A stretch of DNA of 64,000 bases from the NCBI GenBank assembly GCA_963780185.1, contig CAWABA010000011.1, forward strand, positions 64,001-128,000. The letters run 5' to 3'. Shown here piece after piece: positions 4,633-52,830 of the stretch. Positions within the stretch are counted from its first letter, which is position 1; the number at the start of each line of letters is the position of its first letter. Under the pieces are notes generated by a model. It did not search any database and was not told the origin of the DNA. It saw nothing but the letters and a program-made list of their open reading frames with translations. Source of the stretch: Candidatus Bathyarchaeota archaeon (GTDB lineage Archaea; Thermoproteota; Bathyarchaeia; Bathyarchaeales; Bathycorpusculaceae). A program made the position numbers and the translations under genes.

Positions 4633-5061
4633 ATGCTTAGAGTAAACGTTGTCATAACAAGCATTTCTGCTGAACGCTTCTGGGATATGAGGAAGCCTAT
4701 TCCGCCCATTCAAATCAACACCAACATCAATGTTGTCGGCATGGAAAAGAAGCAGGATGAATCTTTAGAAGTCCCGTTTGTTCTTTCAATCACCTTTAAC
4801 CCCTCAATCGCTCAAATGAGCCTGAAAGGAAACGCCTACGTCGCAGGCGAAAAAACCGAAGTCGACAAAGTCCTCAAAGACTACGACCAGAAGAAACCGC
4901 CAGCCCAAATAATAATCCAATCAATATCAAACGTCGTCTTCATCGAATCAGTACTCATATCAAGAATACTGAACATCCCGCCGCCAATCCCCCTACCTCA
5001 GATAGCTGAAACTGGGAAACCGCCAAGCTCCAAACCAGAAGGAAGAGACTACAGCGCATAG
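4633..5061 (+). CDS. Conserved archaeal hypothetical protein
   Basis: 142-aa clean ORF with beta-strand pattern and C-terminal NIPPPIPLP motif. Confidence 0.75.
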   Translation: MLRVNVVITSISAERFWDMRKPIPPIQINTNINVVGMEKKQDESLEVPFVLSITFNPSIAQMSLKGNAYVAGEKTEVDKVLKDYDQKKPPAQIIIQSISNVVFIESVLISRILNIPPPIPLPQIAETGKPPSSKPEGRDYSA

Positions 5062-5233
5062 CAGCTTTCCGGGATAGTTATTTTTATTTTTTTCACCCCT
5101 TTCTAGCAACCTTGTTGTATCTCACCCTCCTTCGCGTGGCGTAGCATTCGGCTAATCGGGTTGAGCCTTGGTAGAGTCAAGATGGCGGCTAGATTTATCA
5201 GGAAGTATGTATACATTATGTATGGTGTTGGAA

Positions 5234-5461
5234 ATGGCAAGGCAGATTTCAGTCTCAAACGAAGTCTACGAACTACTCTTGGAAAGAAAAGGCAAGAAGA
5301 GCTTTTCAGAGGTAATCAAAGAGAGCCTCAGCCCAAAAGAAAAACGCGGAGACATCATGAAGTTAGCGGGCATCCTGAAAGAAGACAAAGAAGATCTTGA
5401 ACAGCTAAAAAAACAGATAGAAGCCGAAAGAGAAGCAAATTACGGAAGGAAATTTGAGTGA
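5234..5461 (+). CDS. vapB: VapB-type antitoxin (copy 1)
   Basis: MARQISVSNEVYELL...KKSFSEVIKE...IMKLAGIL; overlaps downstream PIN toxin (GTGA); ATG 5234 matches the start of copy 2. Confidence 0.88.
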   Translation: MARQISVSNEVYELLLERKGKKSFSEVIKESLSPKEKRGDIMKLAGILKEDKEDLEQLKKQIEAEREANYGRKFE

Positions 5462-5832
5462 CGCTTCTCGATACAAGCGTCATAATAGATTACTTAGCAG
5501 GCGACCAAAAAATTGTCGCTTTAGTAAAAGAAATCTTGACTAAAGAAGATGCCAAGACTACAACCATAACCGAATATGAGTTGCTCAGGCACAAGTCAAG
5601 AATAAGGAAACAAGCCGCTGAACGATTTCTATCCAGCGCGACAGTCTACGTATTTGACAGAGCAGCCGCCAAAGAGTCAGCAACTCTCTTTCAAGAACTG
5701 CAAGATTCGGGCAAAATGATAAATGAAAATGACATACTTATCGCTGGCATCGCCCTGGCTTATGGCGAAGTGTTGCTGACAAGAGACCGAAAACTCGCCA
5801 GCATAGGAAAAGCCAACATAAAAATCATCTAA
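5458..5832 (+). CDS. vapC: VapC PIN-domain toxin
   Basis: LLDTSVIID, ITEYEL, NENDILIAGIA, LLTRD. Confidence 0.93.
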   Translation: MTLLDTSVIIDYLAGDQKIVALVKEILTKEDAKTTTITEYELLRHKSRIRKQAAERFLSSATVYVFDRAAAKESATLFQELQDSGKMINENDILIAGIALAYGEVLLTRDRKLASIGKANIKII

Positions 5833-5858
5833 TTACCAGCCGCATCGTTTGGGAGGCT

Positions 5859-5946
5859 GGTGTGTGGGTTGTAACCCGCCTTTACAGGAACCCTTGAATC
5901 TTTTGGCAACAGCATCCGCAATTTTTAGTTCCACGGAAAAAGAAAA
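5859..5946 (-). repeat. Diverged copy of the 3' end and downstream flank of the radical SAM gene (11083-11171)
   Basis: Reverse strand reads FSFSVELKIADAVAKRF(K)GFL-stop (one base missing) vs FSFPIELKLADAVARRSKGFL-stop; shared GGTGTGTGGG flank. Confidence 0.88.
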
Positions 5947-5988
5947 CCGCCGACCCCCAAACCAGAAGGAAGAGACTACAGCCAATAG
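5944..5988 (+). repeat. Diverged copy of the 3' end of gene 4633-5061
   Basis: KPPTPKPEGRDYSQ-stop vs KPPSSKPEGRDYSA-stop; exact CCAAACCAGAAGGAAGAGACTACAGC at 5030-5055 and 5957-5982. Confidence 0.92.
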
Positions 5989-6146
5989 CTGCCCTTTTAG
6001 ATAGCAATTTCTTTCGTTTTTTTTTCACTTACATTAACCACTATTTTACAGCCTTGTTGCCATTTTAGGGTTAATTTTTTGGGGAAATATAAAAAAGCGG
6101 GCTAGATTTTATCTGGAACGCACGTATACATTACGTATGATTATAG

Positions 6147-6380
6147 ATGACACGACAGATTTCAGTCTCAAACGAAGTCTACGAACTACTCCTAAAACGA
6201 AAAGGCAAAAAAAGCTTCTCCCAAGTCATAAAAGAAAGCCTCACCTCAACCGAAAAGAAAACCAACATAATGAAATTCGCCGGAATCATGAAGGACGAAA
6301 AAGAAAAACTTGAACAACTAAAATTGCAAATTGCCGCTGAAAGAGAAGATAATTACGGCAGACCATTTGAAGAGGAATAG
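6147..6380 (+). CDS. vapB: VapB-type antitoxin (copy 2)
   Basis: Paralog of 5234-5461 (RQISVSNEVYELL identical); similar upstream GGCTAGATTT(T)ATC and GTATACATTA.GTATG motifs. Confidence 0.88.
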   Translation: MTRQISVSNEVYELLLKRKGKKSFSQVIKESLTSTEKKTNIMKFAGIMKDEKEKLEQLKLQIAAEREDNYGRPFEEE

Positions 6381-6381
6381 C

Positions 6382-6465
6382 CCGTTAATAGATACAAGTG
6401 TTATAATCAATTTCATCGCAGGAGACGAAAAGCTTGTTTCATCAGTAGAAGAACTCTCCAGCTAA
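6382..6465 (+). pseudogene. Truncated vapC remnant
   Basis: PLIDTSVIINFIAGDEKLVSSVEELSS-stop aligns with the VapC N-terminus (LLDTSVIIDYLAGDQKIV); no start codon, rest missing. Confidence 0.8.
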
Positions 6466-6625
6466 ATCGTTGGAAAGGTTTTCTGTTGAGTTGTAACTCC
6501 TTAGGGCTTAGTAAATTTACTTGTTCATTTTGTTCAATTAGTCTCACTGTTTATAATTGATCTGGCGTAATTAAGCGTCGAAAAAAATCTCTTGAAGTTT
6601 AGCGATCAACTATTTGTCTGCGAGT

Positions 6626-7612
6626 TTACAAACTTTCTACTTTTTTGAAGTCATGTTCTTTTTCTAAAGTGCCTTCATCGAAAAACCGAAACATTGAGCT
6701 TTCCAGATAGCAGCTTTCCAACTCGATACTTAGCCATTGGCGATTCCATTTTTCGGCGGCTTCTCCGGTTACATTGCTACCGGCAAATGGGTCTAAAACT
6801 ACATCACCTTGGTCTGTCAAAAAATTAATAAAAAATTCAGGCAGTTGAATAGGAAAACGAGCTGGATGAGGTTTCACTCCGTATTGCCTACATAGCTTTG
6901 AGTATTTACTATTCGATTCTGTATTGGAGTATTGTAGGAGATTATCTGGTTCCTCAACGTTTGAAAAATCTAAGAGATTGGCAGGAATAGAGCCACCCTG
7001 CCCATTGTAAAAATTGTCAGAAATTTTGTATCCCGATGGTCTCAAAGCATTTGGCTTGTAATAGTTTTTATCGCCCAAAAGCATTTGCATTGATTTACTA
7101 TACTGCCTTAGCACTCGCCTATTATCTGCTTTGGGATTGGGTGTTTTTGATAGCCAAAAAATTTGGTCAACTGCATCCTTCAATCTCAATCCTTTAACGG
7201 TAACATATTGAACAGGTGACGGCAACTTCGCTTTATTAAACCAGTAAATATCTTGGTCAAGATAAAATCCTAGCTCAGAGCACATGCGTAATAAAAGCTC
7301 GTATTGGTACAAGTTTTTTGTCGGGGTGCCCTTAGTCCAACTACCGCCTATATCTATTACAATGCTTCCGTCATCTTTAATGATTCTTTTGAATTCCTTG
7401 GCGAAGGGCATAAACCATTCAACATATTCATCAGGCGCCTTGTTACCATATTCTTTTTTCTTCTGCAGGGCAAAAGGGGGGGAGGTCATAATTAATTGAA
7501 TGCTATCAGATTCAAGGTCTTTCATAAGGTCTAAGGAGTTACCAACGAATGCGGCACCCAGTTCAGTACTGTAAAGAGGTGTAGAAGCGCCTATTTTTTT
7601 GAGAATGCTCAT
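6626..7612 (-). CDS. Beta-class amino DNA methyltransferase, M.PvuII-like (N4-cytosine family)
   Basis: TSPPFALQKKKEYGN (motif IV) precedes DPFAGS (motif I); AKLPSP, GGSIP, HPARFP as in M.PvuII. Confidence 0.93.
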   Translation of the reverse strand: MSILKKIGASTPLYSTELGAAFVGNSLDLMKDLESDSIQLIMTSPPFALQKKKEYGNKAPDEYVEWFMPFAKEFKRIIKDDGSIVIDIGGSWTKGTPTKNLYQYELLLRMCSELGFYLDQDIYWFNKAKLPSPVQYVTVKGLRLKDAVDQIFWLSKTPNPKADNRRVLRQYSKSMQMLLGDKNYYKPNALRPSGYKISDNFYNGQGGSIPANLLDFSNVEEPDNLLQYSNTESNSKYSKLCRQYGVKPHPARFPIQLPEFFINFLTDQGDVVLDPFAGSNVTGEAAEKWNRQWLSIELESCYLESSMFRFFDEGTLEKEHDFKKVESL

Positions 7613-8376
7613 TATTGACCTGCCGTTGGGTTAAGTTCAGATGCATTCCGTTTGATTAAACGCGATGTTACTTTGTCGATATGGCAAGATAACAAACCTT
7701 TTCTTAAAACCTCCGAAACGCACTTTTCTAATTTATCGTGTGACCATTCTTTGGAAAGGTCGCCATATTTACCAGGCAACTTGAGATAGGAACAAAACTC
7801 ATCGAAGTGTTCACTTATTTCTGCCAAACGCACCGCTTCAAAACTCGAAATACAGCCAAAAGAAATCCCGAAAAAAGATGCTAACATATGTGCAGATGCC
7901 AGCAAGTCTCCGTCGTCACTTAAAATGAACGGTTCATAGTGAGTCTTCAAGCGAATCCAATAAGCGTTTGCTAAAAGATTTATGTCAGTAGTTGAAATTC
8001 CAGAATCCAATTTCTTTAAAACTTTAGTCAGAGTTTCTGATTCTGTCTCAATTTCTGACAACGCTACATTCAGCCCGTCTGAGAACTTTTTTAGAAAAGC
8101 GTGATAAACATCATTATCAAGGTCAATTTTTGCTTTCCAAGCCATTAATGCAGCCGTGTCCAATTTTCTGTTTCTATTTAGCTTTGATTTGATGTTTTCC
8201 GATACCATATCTGTGGCGAGGAACACTCCGATTTTAGTTCCAATCTGCTCAAGCGCACCTACATCAATTTTAAGCTTTATCCACATCTCATATACGGTTT
8301 CGTCTGAGATAATTACGACTGTCCGCTTAAGTTTTTCAGGATTAGTATAACTTGATTGCTGGGCTATTTTTTTCAC
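7612..8376 (-). CDS. Divergent PIN-domain protein
   Basis: Acidic PIN-like motifs IISDET, STTDINLLANA, ILSDDGDL; GTG start follows the ATPase stop directly. Confidence 0.6.
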   Translation of the reverse strand: MKKIAQQSSYTNPEKLKRTVVIISDETVYEMWIKLKIDVGALEQIGTKIGVFLATDMVSENIKSKLNRNRKLDTAALMAWKAKIDLDNDVYHAFLKKFSDGLNVALSEIETESETLTKVLKKLDSGISTTDINLLANAYWIRLKTHYEPFILSDDGDLLASAHMLASFFGISFGCISSFEAVRLAEISEHFDEFCSYLKLPGKYGDLSKEWSHDKLEKCVSEVLRKGLLSCHIDKVTSRLIKRNASELNPTAGQ

Positions 8377-9557
8377 CTATTTACCGAGCTTTTCGGTAAG
8401 CTGTTTCATGACTTCATCGGAATACAGCGTGTTATTCTGTTTTTTATATATTGTCGAATCAATTACCAGTCTTTCAGGTTGTTTAGCTACCGCATAAGAA
8501 TCAACGAATATCTTCATCATTTCGCTGTTAATCATTCTAAATGTGAGACTGCTTCCTAAAAGTGGTGATCAGTGAGTCGGCGATACCAGAAATAACTTCT
8601 TGAGTTAGCACTGTATAGGGATCAACCTTACATCGCTTTGAGATACACTCGTAGATATATTCTCTAACTACTTCGGCGGTCTTGACATAGGAAAATTCGA
8701 TCTTGTCCTTGATTCTCGTCAGAAAAGCTTCTTGTAGCAGATCTTCTACGTTTGCGAATGAAGCAAGAGTAAATATCAAGAACATTGTCCAATCATTAGG
8801 AATCTTTTCATGCATTTTTCTCAGAAAATCGCTTATCATAAATCGCTCTGTGGCAGTAGCGCGGGAGAGATTTTCAAGCTCATCAATTGAAATAACAACC
8901 CTTGAGAATCTCTTGGCAAGAATAATGACAAGAATTCTCATAATCTCGACCATGTCGTCAGTATCGCTTAGTTTTCCAATTTTACTCTTGCCTTGAGTTA
9001 AGAAATTGTATCCATCTATGTCCTCAAGAGGAGCAATCAGTAATTCACCACCGATCGAGGGATGAATGTTGCTCTTAATATCGCGAAAAGCTTTCCTGAT
9101 GTTGCCTTCGCCCAAATCTTTCTGAGCACATAATATCTTCAATAGCAGCTGGTCTTTTTTAATTTCTGCAAAACAAGATTCGACCATTTTTCTATGCAAA
9201 GAAAGTGTTAATTCTCCCGTTCTTCGAGGCACTATAGCTGTAATACGAAAATTAAATGTTTCAATTTGTGGTTTGTCTAGCACATTAAAAATTGTTTTTT
9301 GTACGTCCGAATTGGCCAAATATTGTATAGCGAATGTTTTCCCAACCCCTGCGGGACCATATAATACATAAATAAAGGGTGAAGCAAACATTACAGAATC
9401 CAATTGTACTCTAACCATTTTTTCCCAAACTGCATGGTTATCTGCCCAATAATCCACTGAAACTGGTGGGTCTAGCGGAAACGGATCTTTATCCCTTAGG
9501 TAACCCCAAAGCATTCAAGGCATGGTTATATTTTTCCCTTTGTTGCTCATCAGACAT
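8377..9557 (-). CDS. AAA+ P-loop ATPase (~390 aa, rebuilt across frameshifts near 9497, 8553 and 8440)
   Basis: Walker A GPAGVGKT, Walker B ISIDELE; N-terminus MSDEQQ...LGLPKDKDPFP from ATG 9557; C-terminal frames LTFRMIN and ...KLGK-TAG at 8377. Confidence 0.8.
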
Positions 9558-10487
9558 TTATTTCATACTTCCAACTTTTATGTAACCCGAATTTGCCAGA
9601 TTATCCCAATTAAACGATGAGTCATAATTGTTCGCTATCTCTTTTAACTTTTTTACTAAATCCGGAACAGTCACGACTATATTATGCTCCATTACCAACT
9701 GGATTTGTATTTCAAGAACTAACGGGTATGCTGAGAACAAGTAATTGTCTACTTCGCTTCTTGCATTTCGCCCAAGTTTATTTATCGCTTGTTTCATCAG
9801 CGACCAAAGACTGTCATCGGAAATGTCAAGACGAGTAGAAATATTCGTTGACAGAAGCAGTTGAACGTATTTTCCGTTAATAGCTTCATTTTGGTTAAGC
9901 GCTTCCCGCATTTGATAGCCAATGCTCGTAAGGGTGAAAGAACCGAAACAAGTCTTTTTAGGTCTTAGTATTCCGAGATCAACCAACCATTCAAAATAAG
10001 ACTCAACAAAATGTTCTGAAAGGTGTAATTCGCTTACATAATCCTTAATGTAATTATTTATTCTCAAATGACAGATTAGTTCCCGAAAATCCTTTAAGTT
10101 AATTAATCTTAAAAAGAAAGAAATCTTTTCCTTCTTTGTTAGAAAAAAACTTTGCTTATCATCAATGTTCGCCAGGAAAACAGTATATCCATTAGGTATT
10201 ACAATTCTACCTTCTATTCTCAGAAAATCGAGCCAGTCTGCAAATCGAAGGTAATTTCTTGCCACCGCTCTTGACCTTAAAACGCCTGTGTTTCTGATAT
10301 ATTTTAATAATTCTGGATTAATCAATTCGGATGCTTTCAAGAGCTTCTCTATAAAAAGATCCATGTCGATGGAAGGCGACTCAAGAAGTTTAGAAGAGAT
10401 CAGCACAAAATATCTTAGCCGCCTGGCTTCTCCAAGTGGGGAACGCTTAGTATCTACAACCTGTGGCTCAATTCCGTCCATTAACAA
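9558..10487 (-). CDS. Hypothetical protein with probable tandem winged-helix domains
   Basis: 309 aa; ARNYLRFADWLDFL...IPNGY and YFEWLVDLGIL...FTLTSIG are wHTH-type signatures. Confidence 0.6.
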   Translation of the reverse strand: MLMDGIEPQVVDTKRSPLGEARRLRYFVLISSKLLESPSIDMDLFIEKLLKASELINPELLKYIRNTGVLRSRAVARNYLRFADWLDFLRIEGRIVIPNGYTVFLANIDDKQSFFLTKKEKISFFLRLINLKDFRELICHLRINNYIKDYVSELHLSEHFVESYFEWLVDLGILRPKKTCFGSFTLTSIGYQMREALNQNEAINGKYVQLLLSTNISTRLDISDDSLWSLMKQAINKLGRNARSEVDNYLFSAYPLVLEIQIQLVMEHNIVVTVPDLVKKLKEIANNYDSSFNWDNLANSGYIKVGSMK

Positions 10488-10539
10488 GTGACCCTTTTTA
10501 TTTAAGTAGACTCAATAAGAATTTAAATCCTACCGTTAG

Positions 10540-11044
10540 TTGAATCCGTTTATGCAAGTTAAAATCGGTAATGTCTCATTTGAGGTTCCACTTCTTCCGT
10601 TTCGTTTAGAGGGAAATGATGAATACATATTACTCGATACCAGCTGCTTGTTAGATATACTTCCAAAAACTAAACCCTTCTTTTTTACTAGTGAAGAAAA
10701 GAAATCTAAAGATAGCTATCCTCGAAAAAACTATTCGCGAGGTTGAAGAGCACTTGACAAAGTCACTTATAACTCGCCAAGAAGAAAATGCCTCAACTTT
10801 CGGTATTGAAAGCGCCGGCAATTGCCTTAGAAAAATACTAATGGATACCAGAATAAAGAAGATATCCAATCCAACGACCACCGACAAAAAACTAGCAAGT
10901 TATGAGAAATTTGCTGAAGATAAAATACTGGCTTACGCATTATTTGAAGGGAAATTCAAGGCAATTTCGACAAAGGGGGACACAGCTTTTTCAAATCGCC
11001 TAAAAGATAAACATATTTCAGTTGATAAGATTCTTAAACCCTGA
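10540..11044 (+). CDS. PIN-domain protein split by a frameshift at a T6 run (10681-10686)
   Basis: Joined frames give ILLDTSCLLD...IAILEKTIREV...EDKILAYAL...ISTKGD. Confidence 0.62.
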
Positions 11045-11105
11045 TACGATAGCGTCTTATTCCAACGCTTTGCATAGGACTCGGTGTGTGGGCGCAACGC
11101 TCCCT

Positions 11106-12665
11106 TTATAGGAACCCTTTGGATCTTCTGGCAACTGCGTCTGCAAGTTTCAGTTCAATTGGGAACGAGAAGGATCTGTGTTTCCATCGGTACTTCTCAA
11201 TTTTGTTCATCATTGTGTAAGCTGTTTTGAAGGCGAAGTCGCGTTCTTTTATTCTTGCTTCTGGGAGAAACGCCAGACGGGTAACGGCTGAAATCGTGTG
11301 GAGTTTTGCAATTTGTTTTTTGCTGTGCCAAGGCGGGTCAAAATGGAAAACTTGGATGCTTCCCCACGCCTCAAGCGACTGAGGCGGAACAAAACCCGAT
11401 GGCAAAACATTGGCTAGCGGGCTCGGGAACGGGGTGTAGACGAATATGCCGTAGTGCTGGGTTTTCGGGTTGACTTCGGACATTTTATCCATCAAGTCAA
11501 AGGTTTGGTTTAGGTCTTGGTCTGTTTCGCCTGGTAAGCCGCTCATCCATGAAACGTAGGGCTCGATGGATGGCGCCCAAGCCTTGAGGTTTGCAACGGA
11601 TTGGAGCATTTGGTCCGCTGTCACGTCTTTGCAGATGAGTTCCTGCAGACGCGGGGACCCTGATTCGCCTCCGAAATCAAGCTCAACGCAGCCCGCCCGC
11701 TCCAAAAGCCCGAGAAATTCCCTGTCGTATGTTGATAGGTAATCGAATCGGCAGTTAGCCCGCCACTGAACATGTATTTTCCTGTCGATGATACCTTGGC
11801 AGATGTCTCTAACGCGCTGTTGATCCACAAAAACGTTGTCGTCGATGGGGTCGATTATTTTGACGTTTGGAAATTTTTTGAGGATGTATTCTATTTCGTC
11901 GAGGACGCGGCTTGCGCTTTTGCCTCGCCACCTTTTTTTGTTGAACAGGGTGTTGTAGCAGAAACCGCATCTGTGGGGGCAGCCTCTGCTGGTTTGGATG
12001 TGGAACCTGCCTGATTTTACGGATGGGTAGCGGTCCATTTGGAGGAGGTCGTATGGCAGGTCGATGGGTGTTGCGTCTAAGTCGATTATTTTGCCGTCAG
12101 GGTTGCTCTTCACTGCGCCGCCAACGCGGTAGGTTATGCCTGCAACGCCCTCAAGCGGCTGAGCTGACGCAAGAGCATTCGCCAAGTCCTTGACTATTAG
12201 TTCCCCTTCTCCGCGGACAACCACGTCCACGAGTGGGTGGCTTGCGGTTTGTTCAGGCAGAAGCGTTGGGTGTACGCCGCCCCAGACCAGCGGGCAGGAC
12301 GGGTTTTGCGTTTTCACGTAATGGGCGAGTTCCAACGCGTACTTGATTTGTAGGCCGCTCATGCAGCTTATGCCCACGAAGAGGGGGTCGCCGACGTTGA
12401 AGCTGCGGTAGTCTTCGAGACGCATGTCGAGGACGCGGACACAAAAGCCTTCCTGACGGAGAGACGCGGCTATGTAGAGGAGGGCGAGGGGGACTTGGGG
12501 GTCGGGTGCCTTGAATTTTCCTGGGAAAACAAGCAGGACCTCTTTTTTGCCTTCGGCGGGGGCGTTGTTAAGGGGGGAGGATGGAGTCTGGGTTGAAACC
12601 ACGCTTGCAAAACCTCTATAAGAGGTAATTGAACATGTGTTTTTAATTGTTTCTGAAACAGCCAA
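11106..12665 (-). CDS. B12-binding radical SAM protein (class B methylase/BchE-like); true start may be ~12602
   Basis: PLALLYIA, WGGVHPT, RGEGE, SRGCPHRCGFC, GGESGS. Confidence 0.9.
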   Translation of the reverse strand: MAVSETIKNTCSITSYRGFASVVSTQTPSSPLNNAPAEGKKEVLLVFPGKFKAPDPQVPLALLYIAASLRQEGFCVRVLDMRLEDYRSFNVGDPLFVGISCMSGLQIKYALELAHYVKTQNPSCPLVWGGVHPTLLPEQTASHPLVDVVVRGEGELIVKDLANALASAQPLEGVAGITYRVGGAVKSNPDGKIIDLDATPIDLPYDLLQMDRYPSVKSGRFHIQTSRGCPHRCGFCYNTLFNKKRWRGKSASRVLDEIEYILKKFPNVKIIDPIDDNVFVDQQRVRDICQGIIDRKIHVQWRANCRFDYLSTYDREFLGLLERAGCVELDFGGESGSPRLQELICKDVTADQMLQSVANLKAWAPSIEPYVSWMSGLPGETDQDLNQTFDLMDKMSEVNPKTQHYGIFVYTPFPSPLANVLPSGFVPPQSLEAWGSIQVFHFDPPWHSKKQIAKLHTISAVTRLAFLPEARIKERDFAFKTAYTMMNKIEKYRWKHRSFSFPIELKLADAVARRSKGFL

Positions 12666-16961: not shown

Positions 16962-17171
16962 ACTAACATGGGACATGTGGATAAGGGGGTGCTTGTCAAT
17001 GAAGAAATTTGAAAGTATTTCTTTTGTCCATTAAATTAGGCAATAAAAGCGCGTTAAATTATTTTCGTCTTTTAGTACATTTTTAAAAGGTCTAAAAAGA
17101 AAAGAGAATGGATTGAATCCACTCAGATTTAATTATAAATACTAAGAGAGGGTTATTAGGGATTACAAGAA

Positions 17172-17609
17172 GTGTTAACGTTGGAATCTTTAGAAGTTAC
17201 AATAGTTTGTTCGCAAGAACAATCCCTGAAAATTCCGAAAATTCTTGATGAAGTTAAGAAGGAACACGAAGGCATTTCCTATGCGATTGAAGACTCTTTC
17301 TCTTTTGCCCCGGTTTTCAACGAAAATTCGATAAAAATCGTTCTTTCAGCAATCCAAATCTCCGGCATTGCAGTCCCTGTTCTTACATCTTTAATGGAAA
17401 AGCTTCACAAGAATGATATGCGAACTGATTATAATGACCGCTATAAACTGGCACTCAGAACTCTTAAAGACAAAGCCCCTTTAATATGCGATCAGTTGGA
17501 AGATACTCCGTTTTTTAGTCAGTATAAATTTACTACAAAGTATGGGAAATATGTCTGGACATATAATAAAGGGAAGATTTCAATGAACCAAATTAAGGAG
17601 AAAGAATGA
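17172..17609 (+). CDS. Hypothetical protein, coupled to dcd
   Basis: 145-aa ORF whose stop directly abuts the dcd start. Confidence 0.65.
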   Translation: MLTLESLEVTIVCSQEQSLKIPKILDEVKKEHEGISYAIEDSFSFAPVFNENSIKIVLSAIQISGIAVPVLTSLMEKLHKNDMRTDYNDRYKLALRTLKDKAPLICDQLEDTPFFSQYKFTTKYGKYVWTYNKGKISMNQIKEKE

Positions 17610-18206
17610 TTGACCGTTCTTTCCGACCAAGAACTGAAAGAACTTATTCGCAAAAAGGATGTAGTCGTCCACCCCATTTTATCTGAAAAGCAAATTCAGT
17701 GTGCCAAGATTGACTTGAGACTAAGTAACGTAATTTACATGATAAAGTATTTTGAACATGCTTGTTATGATCCAAGAAAGGAAAATATTGACTACGGTGA
17801 AGAAAGAAAAATTGATTTCAATGAAGCTTTCATACTTCATCCAGGAGACTTTGCGATGGCACCACTCTTTGAAAGAGTAAAGCTTCCCGCGAATATAGTA
17901 GGTCGTTTAGATGGTCGAAGCTCCTTTGGCAGATTGGGCATAATAATTCACGCGACTGCTGGAGGCATAGACCCAGGTTATTGCGGGAAAATTACTTGCG
18001 AACTTTCTAATCTAGGGAAAGTTCCTGTTGAACTTTATCCTTTGACACGAATCGCGTCACTAACATTGGAGAGACTTGACAAACCTTGCGAGAAAGCTTA
18101 TTGTAACAAACCCGATAGAAAATATAAGTCCGTTATGTCGACAATGCTGTCTGATGATTATGAATTTAAGGATAAATTGTTTGAAAAGCTAGCAAGCCGT
18201 TTATAA
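17610..18206 (+). CDS. dcd: dCTP deaminase (trimeric dUTPase-like family)
   Basis: VLSD, IDLRL, FILHPG, GRSSFGRLG, AGGIDPGY, ELSN. Confidence 0.93.
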   Translation: MTVLSDQELKELIRKKDVVVHPILSEKQIQCAKIDLRLSNVIYMIKYFEHACYDPRKENIDYGEERKIDFNEAFILHPGDFAMAPLFERVKLPANIVGRLDGRSSFGRLGIIIHATAGGIDPGYCGKITCELSNLGKVPVELYPLTRIASLTLERLDKPCEKAYCNKPDRKYKSVMSTMLSDDYEFKDKLFEKLASRL

Positions 18207-18207
18207 T

Positions 18208-19539
18208 TTAAGAGACTTCGAAAAGACCATTCCATTCTTTCTTAATTTTCCATTTTAGAATGCTATCGCATATAACCTCAAAATGTCTATCAGAAGAATA
18301 TCTTTGATTTTGAGCCATTACGACGTTCAACAAAATCCTTGTGTCCAAAGCCAAAGAAACTTCACTATCAAAAAAGAGATCAGCAATATCAATAAAGGGA
18401 TAAATTGGGTCAGTAAATATTTTTTCGTTTTTCGCCGAACTGGTTTGGAGTTGATACTGTTTTAAGGCAATTCGAAAGGAGCATATTTTTGACTTATCAA
18501 ACCAATCGGAAATAACCGCATATATTTTAATAATTTTGTCATCTGTCTCATTCGAGAATTTATCAGCTTCAAGCAAATCTTTAATTTTATCGCCAATCAT
18601 TGCAGAGCCACACGACTTACATTTGTCAAAAATATCTGTATATGATATATCGGCATCATTCACATACTGTTGTACAGCTCTAAGGCGGATTGCCATTTCA
18701 GGATGATCAAGGGTTTTATGGTAAGGCAATCTCTCGTAATAATTTACAAGTGATAATAGATACATTGGACCAAAGTACTTAGCCGAGAATATGTCCATGA
18801 ATATTTCTGTAATCCATTTTGAGTTGGTTGCTTTATCTTCACTGAGTGTTGGCAATTCAGGGTTAGCATAAAATAAACTCTTAACAAGGTTCTTTTCCCT
18901 GTCCAAAATATGGAATAACTCATGTATCAAAATTGGCCATAGAAGAACGTTTTTGAATTCCCCCCGAATGTACGATATAACATATCCATGCGAAATTTTG
19001 TATCCCTCAAAAATATCCGAAACATCAATCTGAGCCAAGCTACCTGGTTGTGTTATACCTGCTCCAAGCTCTAATCCTACAGAAAGAGGTTCAATAATAG
19101 TTTCCTTAAATGAGTGATTAATAAATTGATTACTTGCTTCTATTATTATTTTTACATCCAAATTTAAATCATCTAAAATCGATTGAACCCAATAATAGAT
19201 TTCAAAAGGTACCATATCTGTTGTTTGATTATTAAAATTCAAGTTGAACCTTTCAACAAGGTTGTAATATTCAACAACTTGCTTAGTCCAGTATTTTCTA
19301 ATAACATCTTCAATGCTAATTTTGCCTCCTCTCTTTTCGATAGTTTCTTGAATATTTGTCGCGGGTTTGATGACAGTTTTCGTTAAAATATTCTTAATAA
19401 TTTTTAGGCCATTTTTGTGGTTATTGGCAGATAAAATTAGATTATTTCTCGCTTGAGGATAAACTACCTCAGCGCTCTTCCATTCATCAATTTCTTTTAT
19501 AATAGAGTCTATGTGATCGCGAAGCGAATCGAGCGGCAT
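18208..19539 (-). CDS. Putative HEXXH zinc metallopeptidase
   Basis: ILIHELFH, distal WITEIFMD..GPMY, HPEMAIRL (M48/gluzincin-like pattern). Confidence 0.7.
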   Translation of the reverse strand: MPLDSLRDHIDSIIKEIDEWKSAEVVYPQARNNLILSANNHKNGLKIIKNILTKTVIKPATNIQETIEKRGGKISIEDVIRKYWTKQVVEYYNLVERFNLNFNNQTTDMVPFEIYYWVQSILDDLNLDVKIIIEASNQFINHSFKETIIEPLSVGLELGAGITQPGSLAQIDVSDIFEGYKISHGYVISYIRGEFKNVLLWPILIHELFHILDREKNLVKSLFYANPELPTLSEDKATNSKWITEIFMDIFSAKYFGPMYLLSLVNYYERLPYHKTLDHPEMAIRLRAVQQYVNDADISYTDIFDKCKSCGSAMIGDKIKDLLEADKFSNETDDKIIKIYAVISDWFDKSKICSFRIALKQYQLQTSSAKNEKIFTDPIYPFIDIADLFFDSEVSLALDTRILLNVVMAQNQRYSSDRHFEVICDSILKWKIKKEWNGLFEVS

Positions 19540-19551
19540 CTTAGTTCGGTC

Positions 19552-20076
19552 CTAAAAAGGAACCGCTACGGCTTTGGAAACATCATAGACTTTGCCAATC
19601 AAATCATGAAGGTCGGTTAATTCCATAATTATCTTATCAGTTTTTTCTTTAGTATTGTTTTTGGAGTCGAAGTGCGCCATTTTTTCCATTATTTTTGTAT
19701 ACGATTCCCTAATACGATCATTATCCCTTTGCGTTAAAGCCGAAGGGCCCATAGCGCTTACTGACAAGTCATGCGGTTCTTTGCAAAAGTTTATGAAATA
19801 TTGTAATTCTGTCGATTGAATTTCATAATCATTTAAAAGTTCCAATCCAGTGATTCCTGTTGACAGTGTGAATAGGAATCTCTCTAATTTGGGTAAAGAT
19901 GCCATAGACTCATCATCCTCGATAGTTACTAATAGTTTATTTTCGGTATACACCGTTAAACCAATTATTAAAGGGTGCACTTGGGATATAACAATTGCTA
20001 TGACTCTTTTACGGACAAAATTAAACAGATAAGAAATCCTAATAGCAATTTTTTTGCTAATCTTATCATAAGTCAA
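19552..20076 (-). CDS. Hypothetical helical protein
   Basis: 174-aa ORF ending 12 bp before the HEXXH gene start; own start uncertain. Confidence 0.55.
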   Translation of the reverse strand: MTYDKISKKIAIRISYLFNFVRKRVIAIVISQVHPLIIGLTVYTENKLLVTIEDDESMASLPKLERFLFTLSTGITGLELLNDYEIQSTELQYFINFCKEPHDLSVSAMGPSALTQRDNDRIRESYTKIMEKMAHFDSKNNTKEKTDKIIMELTDLHDLIGKVYDVSKAVAVPF

Positions 20077-51888: not shown

Positions 51889-52731
51889 TTAATAGTTGTT
51901 TCTTGGAAGCCTAAAATCTACTCCTACCGTTCTGTAACCGATCTTAGGTGCAATCGGCATTCTGCGTTTATGCTCATTGTTCAGCCATCTACGCTTGACT
52001 AATTCAACTGTTGATTTTTCCATATCCAACTGGTTGGCAATCTCTTCGGTGGTCATGAACCGTTCTAAGCCATATAGGATGAGGTCTAAGATTTCGTATC
52101 TGATGCCGAGTTCTGTCTCCGCCATCTGCGTTGGCCAAAGTGCTGGTGTGGAGGGTTTTAAGGCAAGTTCGGCTGGGATTCCTATGTGGATGGCAAGCTT
52201 GCGGACCTGCGTCTTGTAAAGATCCATAATCGGGGTTATGTCTGAGGCGCCGTCTCCCCACTTCGTGAAGTAACCCATCATCGTCTCCGACTTGTCTGAG
52301 CTGCCGCAAACAATCTTGTTGAATTTGTTCGCGTAATAGTAAAGGTAAATCATTCTGGTTCTTGCCTTAACGTTTCCTTTGCAAAGCCTGTCTTTCGAGT
52401 CGAATACTGGAATCTGCTTGTAGAAGCATCGCATGACCTCTGTCATGTCACAGACACTGGTTTCCAGTTGAAATTGTTTCGCTACTGCCTTCGCGTCGTC
52501 AATATCTTTTTGGCTAAAGTTTTCCTCTTCAGGAAGCATCAGGGCTAAGACGTTTTTTCCGCCAACTGCAACGCTGGAAAGGGCGGCTACGGTGGCGCTG
52601 TCGATTCCGCCGGATAGGCCGAGGACTATTCCTTTGGCTCCAGCGTTTTCAACGTATTCTTTGATGAAGCGGCAGATTCTGTTTTGTGTTTCCGAAAAAT
52701 CTATGTCGAAGACAGAGGGTGTAAGTTTCAG
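51889..52731 (-). CDS. nadE: NAD+ synthetase (extended upstream of the ORF-track start)
   Basis: In-frame upstream sequence contains LGLSGGIDS; GNVKARTRM, GYFTKWGDG, HKRR. Confidence 0.93.
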   Translation of the reverse strand: MKLTPSVFDIDFSETQNRICRFIKEYVENAGAKGIVLGLSGGIDSATVAALSSVAVGGKNVLALMLPEEENFSQKDIDDAKAVAKQFQLETSVCDMTEVMRCFYKQIPVFDSKDRLCKGNVKARTRMIYLYYYANKFNKIVCGSSDKSETMMGYFTKWGDGASDITPIMDLYKTQVRKLAIHIGIPAELALKPSTPALWPTQMAETELGIRYEILDLILYGLERFMTTEEIANQLDMEKSTVELVKRRWLNNEHKRRMPIAPKIGYRTVGVDFRLPRNNY

Positions 52732-52830
52732 TCGGCTTCACCAGCCCATATACTCTTGGTTTGTAGGCAAGTATTTAAGGACAAGCATAAATATTACTCA
52801 ACAACATCGGCGATTTGAAGGCTGTTTAGT

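Follow-up and report, generated by a model that had tools for sequence, protein, structure and literature searches.

The stretch analysed here, 64,000 nt of the genome of a Candidatus Bathyarchaeota archaeon (contig CAWABA010000011.1, positions 64,001 to 128,000 of the forward strand; hereafter the window), carries on its minus strand four abutting reading frames, found from the open reading frame (ORF) calls and translations of the window, that span positions 6626-10487. They encode a triple winged-helix protein (W309), an AAA+ ATPase, a PIN-fold protein (P254) and a DNA methyltransferase. Together with a small PIN gene on the opposite strand they may form a five-gene, methylation-gated, ATP-dependent, restriction-like archaeal defence cassette, a reading to which we assign a probability of about 0.5.

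An earlier note on this DNA had described four AT-rich, translationally coupled genes on the minus strand, and the sequence bears this out. The W309 stop codon TAA (9560-9558) abuts the ATPase start codon ATG at 9557, the ATPase stop codon TAG (8379-8377) abuts the GTG start of P254 at 8376, and the stop of P254 and the start of the methyltransferase overlap by one base at 7612. The GC content of the cassette region is 0.36-0.39, against 0.466 for the genome. All four operon genes of that note are real; what it overlooked is a fifth, the divergent small PIN gene, and the AT-rich DNA between this gene and the operon is presumably a promoter shared by the two. A scan for promoters and terminators of bacterial type, which is not applicable to archaea, returned fewer promoter-like sites than shuffled sequences did. 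The coordinates of all features are collected in Table 1.

Table 1. Features of the cassette, of the insertion that holds it, and of split genes elsewhere in the window
Feature	Positions	Strand	Remarks
N4-cytosine beta-class DNA methyltransferase, M.PvuII-like	6626..7612	-	328 aa, intact
254-aa PIN-fold protein (P254), long helical insert and C-terminal extension, presumed effector nuclease	7612..8376	-	
AAA+ ATPase gene	8377..9557	-	~396 aa in relatives; three frames here
309-aa triple winged-helix protein (W309), presumed DNA-recognition subunit	9558..10487	-	
52-nt AT-rich divergent intergenic region, operon / small PIN gene	10488..10539	.	sequence read
Small VapC-like PIN gene	10540..11044	+	divergent from operon; ~165-180 aa in relatives
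Low-GC insertion, 6 kb	5062..11105	.	VapBC pair, second VapB with vapC stub, cassette
Split gene, uL4 position of ribosomal operon	~15115		named by position
Split ATP-citrate lyase subunit gene	~22300		
Split aconitase gene	~27580		
Split sites	~43230, ~44176		
Split DUF2070 gene	~60100		

The cassette proteins and related loci

The earlier proposal of a beta-class methyltransferase like M.PvuII is upheld by matches to Pfam N6_N4_Mtase (E 2.1e-41; 142.7 bits against a curated cut-off of 26.7), to PADLOC MTase_II PDLC03323 (E 2.7e-111) and to the M.PvuII structure 1boo in the Protein Data Bank (PDB; E 2e-93), to which residues 11-318 (~308 residues) align with about half of the positions identical. 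Its motifs, TSPPF near residue 44 and DPFAGSN near residue 271, stand in the beta-class order, in which motif IV (SPP[FY]) precedes the AdoMet motif, and SPPF or SPPY we take to be the signature of N4-cytosine methylation. M.PvuII is a self-sufficient type II enzyme. On these comparisons the window protein is an ordinary member of the M.PvuII family, of the stand-alone beta-class N4-cytosine type, and identity at about half of the positions leaves its specificity (CAGCTG for PvuII) unfixed. No cognate endonuclease of the PD-(D/E)xK, HNH, GIY-YIG or PLD type was found beside it; scans with Pfam, PADLOC and NCBIfam matched none of the ORFs to a restriction enzyme family, in agreement with the earlier remark that no PD-(D/E)xK or HNH enzyme is recognisable here. 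The PvuII site CAGCTG occurs 706 times in the genome where 921 are expected (observed/expected ratio 0.77, rank 4 of 64 palindromic hexamers by depletion). We rejected this depletion as evidence: other palindromes are equally depleted, no control genome stands behind the ratio, and there is no local depletion, with 23 sites in the window (25.5 expected) and 14 in the syntenic DNA of the same-genus genome G402 (14.7 expected).

The 309-aa protein had been read from its sequence as containing several winged helix-turn-helix domains. An AlphaFold2 (AF2) model built on an alignment of 38 members (predicted local distance difference test, pLDDT, 91; predicted template modelling score, pTM, 0.89) agrees, with three tandem winged-helix units, at residues 22-115, 117-202 and 218-309. 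In an unbiased wide structure search with VIA the best match to this model was the FokI recognition domain (2fok_A; Z 10.9, 174 residues aligned, root-mean-square deviation (rmsd) 4.1, model residues 14-205), followed by N.BspD6I (Z 9.1), BrxA (Z 7.9), SspB (Z 7.3) and the BpuJI recognition domain (Z 7.0), and the third unit superposes on the winged helices of ETS and ORC proteins. Atlas protein-language features place W309 at 0.90 to the FokI recognition-domain cluster, which we treat as a lead only. Sequence families are silent on this kinship: 0 of the 41 members match Pfam FokI_D1, FokI_dom_2, FokI_D3, BpuJI_N, DUF4007 or BrxA, 4 of the 41 match the generic HTH_45, and for the window protein itself Pfam, PADLOC and NCBIfam gave no family, nor did PADLOC return anything relevant. 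No PD-(D/E)xK or HNH structure was listed in the fold search, a result that is insufficient by itself to exclude such folds. The model thus suggests a recognition module resembling that of FokI but lacking a nuclease domain, rather than an ordinary type II restriction enzyme.

The ATPase carries both the Walker A and the Walker B motif named in the earlier note (GPAGVGKT and ISIDELE), and its assignment to the AAA+ class stands: 47 of the 48 family members match Pfam AAA_22 (member P0043 with 37.5 bits against a cut-off of 27). Invariant in the family are Walker A (G67-K73), Walker B (D225-E226) and Arg281, and the N-terminus holds a strongly conserved DPFPxDPPxxVDYWADN motif. There are weak matches to PADLOC BrxD (29/48, best 8.6e-5), to Pfam BrxC_BrxD (9/48, best 1.9e-4) and, in one of the 48, to AAA_5; two of the 48 give an ORC-CDC6-like match, and one member matches a phage clamp-loader PHROG at 5.9e-7.

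P254 was previously described as a divergent PIN protein. Scans with Pfam (where no PIN family matched at E up to 0.1), PADLOC, NCBIfam and PHROGs found no family for it, so the PIN assignment is one that rests on structure, namely an AF2 model from an alignment of 13 family members (pLDDT 81, pTM 0.77). The top rows of a Foldseek search with this model are PIN proteins at weak E-values (best 9.4e-3). VIA-align to the VapC structure 6ifc_A gives Z 11.8 with 131 of 132 residues aligned and an rmsd of 3.0, and when 48,161 representative chains were searched without bias, ranks 1-38, down to Z 6.1, are all PIN-domain entries except the cyclodehydratase RohQ, with VapC-type proteins leading (Z 11.5). 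Lower scores go to the FEN-type DNA 5' nucleases, with Z 6.1 for ExoIX and Z 4.7 for T4 RNase H. The fold searches listed no PD-(D/E)xK or HNH structure, which alone is insufficient to exclude such folds; the PIN fold found speaks against an ordinary type II restriction enzyme here as well. Profiles of the P254, ATPase and W309 families, compared with PDB sequences, matched nothing beyond Walker A.

Among the 11-13 family members that can be compared, the acidic residues of the putative P254 metal site are invariant (Asp25, Asp131 and Asp155) or nearly so (Glu148). Also invariant are Trp80, His163, Ser177, Glu180 and His232, located in the helical insert and C-terminal region. Of these, His163, Ser177, Glu180 and His232 are outside the canonical acidic site of PIN domains and may form a second functional site.

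The small divergent gene encodes a second PIN protein, of VapC-like fold; the Atlas model of its homologue in locus L004 has a TM-score of 0.60-0.65 to PIN_2 and PIN_3 clusters. It shows no relation to the P254 family in hhalign. No VapB-type antitoxin gene lies upstream of it: in the six loci where this gene is complete or split, the divergently oriented W309 gene stands on its upstream side, and the two VapB genes of the window (5168-5461 and 6147-6380) belong to other, older modules.

Word-based searches, with the window's own protein counted in each, returned 38 clusters for W309 and 54 for the ATPase; many members of the two families pair up on equally long contigs, and those that are named come from metagenome-assembled genomes (MAGs) of Jordarchaeaceae, Promethearchaeota, Nitrososphaerales, Nitrososphaera and Bathyarchaeia. 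The same kind of search gave three matches for P254 and suggested an orphan, a view overturned by a profile search of 1.84 billion representatives, which found 51 proteins (46 at E up to 1e-10), and by a scan of the related loci, which found the gene in 12 of them. Fragments aside, these 51 proteins are stand-alone and of about 210-250 aa, with one exception, a weak match of 944 aa.

We compared one genome and 16 metagenome loci, calling ORFs and scoring them with phmmer; counts out of 18 include the window, and one candidate (L002) is an unrelated P-loop match. Wherever the DNA runs on past W309 (15 of 15 loci) the ATPase comes next, wherever it runs on past the ATPase (12 of 12) the PIN gene comes next, and the order W309-ATPase-PIN is kept in 12 of the 12 loci that are long enough. 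Most neighbouring genes overlap or are separated by no more than 8 nt. A methyltransferase gene adjoins this module in 11 of the 18 loci, which are all of those with a visible flank, the other seven being cut by contig ends; among the 18 there is no locus with both flanks visible that lacks one. The genes of the earlier note thus do co-occur elsewhere. Of the 14 loci in which the upstream side can be seen, 7 have the small PIN gene (homologues in L003, L004, L005, L006 and L012, with a shortened copy in L011), always divergent from W309.

The constancy of the three-gene module contrasts with the variable placement of the methyltransferase, which lies downstream and convergent in six loci, downstream on the same strand in one (the window), upstream on the same strand in three and upstream and divergent in one. 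Nine of these enzymes are PvuII-like and two (in L013 and L014) come from other N6_N4 subfamilies, giving three subfamilies overall; all ten with an N-terminus carry SPPF (8) or SPPY (2). In L017 the position of the convergent methyltransferase is taken by a different convergent ORF (2497-2973), which encodes 158 aa before the contig end truncates it and matches no Pfam family. The genes diverge together: over nine loci the pairwise identities of the methyltransferases are correlated with W309 identities (rho 0.74, Mantel p 0.0025), ATPase identities (rho 0.64, p 0.009) and PIN protein identities (rho 0.64, p 0.0055). The W309 and methyltransferase trees have their main groups in common, and L013 and L014, with their different type of methyltransferase, form one W309 clade (support 93/96).

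On sequence evidence the contexts of the family are defence islands or provirus and mobile DNA. In L001, a Nitrososphaerales MAG, the neighbours include a Type III-like restriction-modification (R-M) system and a UvrD and PD-(D/E)XK pair; in L014 they include a Type I/IIG-like methyltransferase, a NucS-like protein and an integrase. In L011 (1-20891) the cassette stands amid genes for phage cement and tail-tube proteins and adjoins a ThaI restriction enzyme with its own methyltransferase; it may be carried by an archaeal provirus, and its small PIN gene is shortened to 79 aa. A W309 profile search of viral contigs found 0 relatives.

A possible mechanism and the substrate of the PIN protein

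From the sequence comparisons and structural models we consider the following mechanism plausible. The methyltransferase would mark host DNA with N4-methylcytosine (m4C), possibly at CAGCTG, and W309 would read the same sites, binding them only when they are unmethylated. Such binding would nucleate or activate the AAA+ ATPase on DNA, in the manner in which ATPases of the ORC/Cdc6, TnsC and BrxC types are loaded, and the ATPase, holding the PIN protein by its helical insert, would switch it on. The invader would then be cut, most likely as DNA, with the PIN protein as the restriction nuclease of an enzyme split into recognition, motor and nuclease parts, and the small divergent PIN, which half of the loci possess, would serve as a second, optional effector. 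This is in essence the logic proposed earlier, in which methylation marks self, the winged-helix protein and ATPase sense DNA and a PIN nuclease is the effector; it fits the comparisons made here and draws support from a modelled interface between ATPase and PIN protein.

That interface comes from a three-chain model of W309, ATPase and PIN protein from L004, scored for the PIN chain. The median ipSAE was 0.70 (runs at 0.72, 0.00 and 0.70), against 0.01 for the best of three controls; in the calibration of the tool 58 of 80 solved complexes attain the ipSAE mark, as do 2 of 110 mismatched pairs, a calibration that holds only roughly for a model made, as this one was, with our own alignments and three chains. 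Contact agreement over the runs was at least 0%, and partner pLDDT at least 69. Every confident contact of the PIN chain involves the ATPase (its residues 112-118, 188, 195-202 and 234-243, against PIN residues 25-30, 54 and 59-73), and none was reported between PIN protein and W309. The stretches in contact hold the conserved ATPase residues R112, G114, D198 and D243 and PIN D25, and flank the invariant W67; the catalytic Asp residues of the PIN protein lie outside the modelled interface. The model supports a PIN protein that sits on the ATPase.

Several observations weigh against the proposed cassette as a restriction-like system. One of the three runs of the complex model returned an ipSAE of 0.00. 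Aligned by hhalign to the Orc1/Cdc6 protein encoded in the window itself, the ATPase profile matches in the Walker A region alone, and a place for it in the ORC/Cdc6-BrxC/BrxD clade is tentative. The correlations of methyltransferase identity with the other proteins could in part reflect shared host ancestry. Modules of the FokI, BspD6I and BpuJI type read asymmetric sites, and a single PvuII-like methyltransferase suggests a palindrome. As assembled, the ATPase is not an open gene in the window, a point to which we return below.

The substrate of the PIN protein is the weaker half of the claim. We favour DNA, since the module stands where a restriction gene would stand and no other nuclease is conserved, and yet we hold the question evenly balanced, because the structures nearest to P254 are VapC-type RNases (Z ~11, with FEN-type DNA nucleases lower) and because the PIN effectors so far validated in defence are described as ribonucleases in PMC13092281. 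A bolder form of the restriction reading, to which we give tentative and rather less credence, is that P254 is a true restriction endonuclease with a PIN fold, part of a split type IIS-like enzyme whose FokI-like reader, AAA+ ATPase and nuclease are three polypeptides, and in which the ATPase licenses the cleavage of m4C-free DNA. To our knowledge PIN does not figure among the folds of restriction enzymes, which are PD-(D/E)xK, HNH, GIY-YIG, PLD and half-pipe.

The same facts give good grounds for an alternative in which the sensor is unchanged and the effectors are RNases, the PIN proteins cutting tRNA, rRNA or mRNA so that growth arrest or abortive infection results instead of DNA restriction. 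The closest structures (VapC toxins, PAE2754/PAE0151, Nob1, Utp24 and HARP) are nearly all RNA nucleases, and a second, VapC-like PIN gene accompanies half of the loci. PMC13092281 describes the PIN effectors DS-3 and DS-5, which act in phage defence, as ribonucleases, and in PMC12839542 and PMC10853773 PIN is named a 'backup endoRNase' for BREX and Dnd loci. We nevertheless judge this alternative somewhat unlikely, given that the module holds the place of the restriction gene beside a stand-alone type II-like methyltransferase with no other conserved nuclease, that the P254 family has a conserved insert and C-terminal extension missing from VapC toxins, and that it has no conserved antitoxin-like partner.

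Condition and origin of the copy in the window

Two genes of the cassette are interrupted in the window. Aligned to full-length relatives, the ATPase falls into three frames (9557-~9495, 9514-8537 and 8535-8377) owing to one extra base near 9495 and another near 8545; indels in this gene had been flagged earlier, and they prove to be two +1 insertions. In the small PIN gene a frameshift, located in an A-run near 10700, leaves two pieces, 10540-10746 and 10691-11044.

If these frameshifts are real, the restriction half of the cassette is dead in this genome, leaving an orphan methyltransferase and relics. R-M systems commonly lose the restriction half and keep the methyltransferase, and the three frameshifts in ~4.6 kb are about six-fold denser than the at least six in the other ~58 kb of the window. 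We think this outcome unlikely, and the frameshifts probably assembly errors rather than decay, because at least six further conserved genes of the window (Table 1) are likewise split by frame changes relative to same-genus syntenic DNA, 53 ORFs of which gave matches when used as queries, including the gene at the uL4 position and those for an ATP-citrate lyase subunit and aconitase. The ATPase fragments, moreover, retain all of the invariant (30/30) and near-invariant (34/34) columns that they cover, and one of the frameshifts in the island sits in the A-run. The small-PIN fragments retain 26 of the 34 columns that are invariant among only five relatives. The one public read run listed, with a share of 0.05, yielded two short contigs identical to the window, at 9116-9279 and 9833-10005, with the frameshift sites outside both. 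It follows from so indel-prone an assembly that pseudogene calls in this genome need read support.

The match of NAD synthase at 51889-52735 begins 144 nt upstream of the first ATG, GTG or TTG of its frame (282-codon frame, 216-aa ORF). Its start codon is either absent or of an uncommon kind, perhaps through a further sequence error.

The cassette is a rare, horizontally acquired element: the family occurs once in this genome, and a search of 400 others from the class, 40 of them from the same genus, turned up no W309. In tblastx comparisons with the same-genus genomes G402 and G362, window position 5060 directly abuts 11106, and we therefore regard 5062-11105 as an insertion between two convergent genes. 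Its parts follow in the order left flank, VapBC, right-flank remnant, left-flank remnant, second VapB, vapC stub, cassette and right flank. The right-flank remnant (5859-5895, reaching ~5988) matches 11083-11119 at 76% and the left-flank remnant (5944-6020) matches 5017-5093 at 77%; these remnants inside the island are duplicated 3' ends of both flanking genes. vapB is duplicated too (5234-5457 matches 6147-6370), and the orphan vapB is followed by a vapC stub of 25 codons (6382-6456) that is 56% identical to the start of the intact VapC (5458-5832). The cassette appears to have replaced most of a second vapC gene. The whole resembles a tandem joining of two cargo alleles from one hot spot, and the site of insertion has the look of a recombination hot spot; a single crossover with a circularised fragment of a related strain would be expected to give this layout.

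A second low-GC stretch, at 17000-20000 (GC 0.33-0.36), may likewise be an acquired island; alongside a dCTP deaminase gene it holds two ORFs with no Pfam family, at 18208-19539 (443 aa) and 19552-20076 (174 aa).

Relation to known defence systems

The absence of a match to any named defence system in PADLOC, Pfam and NCBIfam agrees with the earlier view of the locus as a candidate undescribed system. The claim that the system is undescribed holds in part. Full-text literature searches found no description of a PvuII-like m4C methyltransferase with a FokI-like reader, an AAA_22 ATPase and a PIN protein, within a scope that leaves aside the supplementary tables of PMC12839542 and PMC10853773, where such neighbourhoods may be listed. 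The general theme, by contrast, is published: in those two papers, fast-evolving triple (winged) helix-turn-helix proteins stand with AAA+ ATPases by a modification gene and nucleases in BREX (BrxA-BrxC), Ssp (SspB-SspC) and DndG.

With the PvuII R-M system the cassette shares a methyltransferase close to M.PvuII, a stand-alone beta-class N4-cytosine enzyme. It differs in having no PD-(D/E)xK endonuclease like R.PvuII and no C protein; instead it has genes for the winged-helix protein, ATPase and PIN protein. With the type IIS enzymes FokI, N.BspD6I and BpuJI it shares the recognition fold, on which W309 superposes best, but W309 has neither a fused nuclease nor membership of their sequence families, and recognition, motor and nuclease are on separate polypeptides. 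The concept of McrBC and LlaJI, in which a DNA-reading part and an AAA+ NTPase recruit and activate a separate nuclease subunit, is the same, and LlaJI combines NTP-dependent restriction with protective methyltransferases. The cassette ATPase, however, is of the AAA_22 and not the McrB/AAA_5 type, the nuclease is PIN and not McrC-type PD-D/ExK, and family scans found no McrB- or McrC-type protein. VapBC modules share with the cassette the VapC-like PIN fold, present in both of its PIN proteins. Unlike those modules, the cassette has no conserved VapB-type antitoxin, and P254 has its long helical insert and C-terminal extension and is modelled on the ATPase. An m4C R-M system of D. radiodurans was considered as a relative and set aside as unrelated, since it uses a GIY-YIG enzyme (PMC10855626).

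MANTIS (Gao_RL) is an experimentally shown ATPase-driven, methylation-based defence. According to a preprint (10.64898/2026.09.23.753747), it likewise has four components (methyltransferase, AAA+ ATPase, small co-factor and nuclease effector), and its methylation needs the ATPase and co-factor. It is different in its helicase-nuclease effector, in its alpha-class adenine methyltransferase, which depends on the ATPase, and in a co-factor of no known fold. The PADLOC scans showed no sequence relation to MANTIS, the presence of MANTIS models in PADLOC 2.0 being unconfirmed. BREX, Ssp and Dnd are alike in the structural resemblance of W309 to BrxA and SspB and in the weakly BrxD-like ATPase; the cassette departs from them in using a type II-like m4C methyltransferase, in having PIN as its sole conserved nuclease fold and in its much smaller size (~4.6 kb). 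Neither a PAPS reductase-like SspD/DndC nor a cysteine desulfurase was found in the cassette or the scanned neighbours. That pglZ and brxL are absent, as noted earlier, is confirmed: PglZ, PglX, BrxB and BrxL were found neither among the window ORFs nor among the neighbours of the 17 related loci.

It is improbable that W309 and the ATPase act in a BREX- or MANTIS-like way, loading or licensing the methyltransferase or blocking the replication of unmodified DNA without cutting, with the PIN proteins as accessories: the likeness of W309 to BrxA and SspB, the weak BrxD and BrxC_BrxD matches of the ATPase and the dependence of MANTIS methylation on an ATPase and co-factor point that way, but a licensing role is less likely because the methyltransferase is of a self-sufficient type, near M.PvuII, and its position shifts, its place, strand and subfamily varying between loci as would be unexpected for the subunit of a fixed complex, and in addition the BREX proteins named above are missing and the PIN gene is as constant as the ATPase (12/12).

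As a restriction-like defence system, the cassette would be a compact archaeal addition to the growing class of methylation-based, ATPase-driven systems, and its novelty would lie in a set of parts not seen side by side before: a type II-like m4C methyltransferase, a FokI-like reader that stands free, an AAA+ ATPase and, as nuclease, a PIN protein. Should that protein cut DNA, restriction enzymes would gain one more fold and a naturally modular pair of reader and nuclease would be at hand; should it cut RNA, the cassette would demonstrate that a lack of methylation on DNA is able to set off an abortive response. In both cases three unannotated protein families, each of some 40-55 clusters in public data, would gain a testable function.

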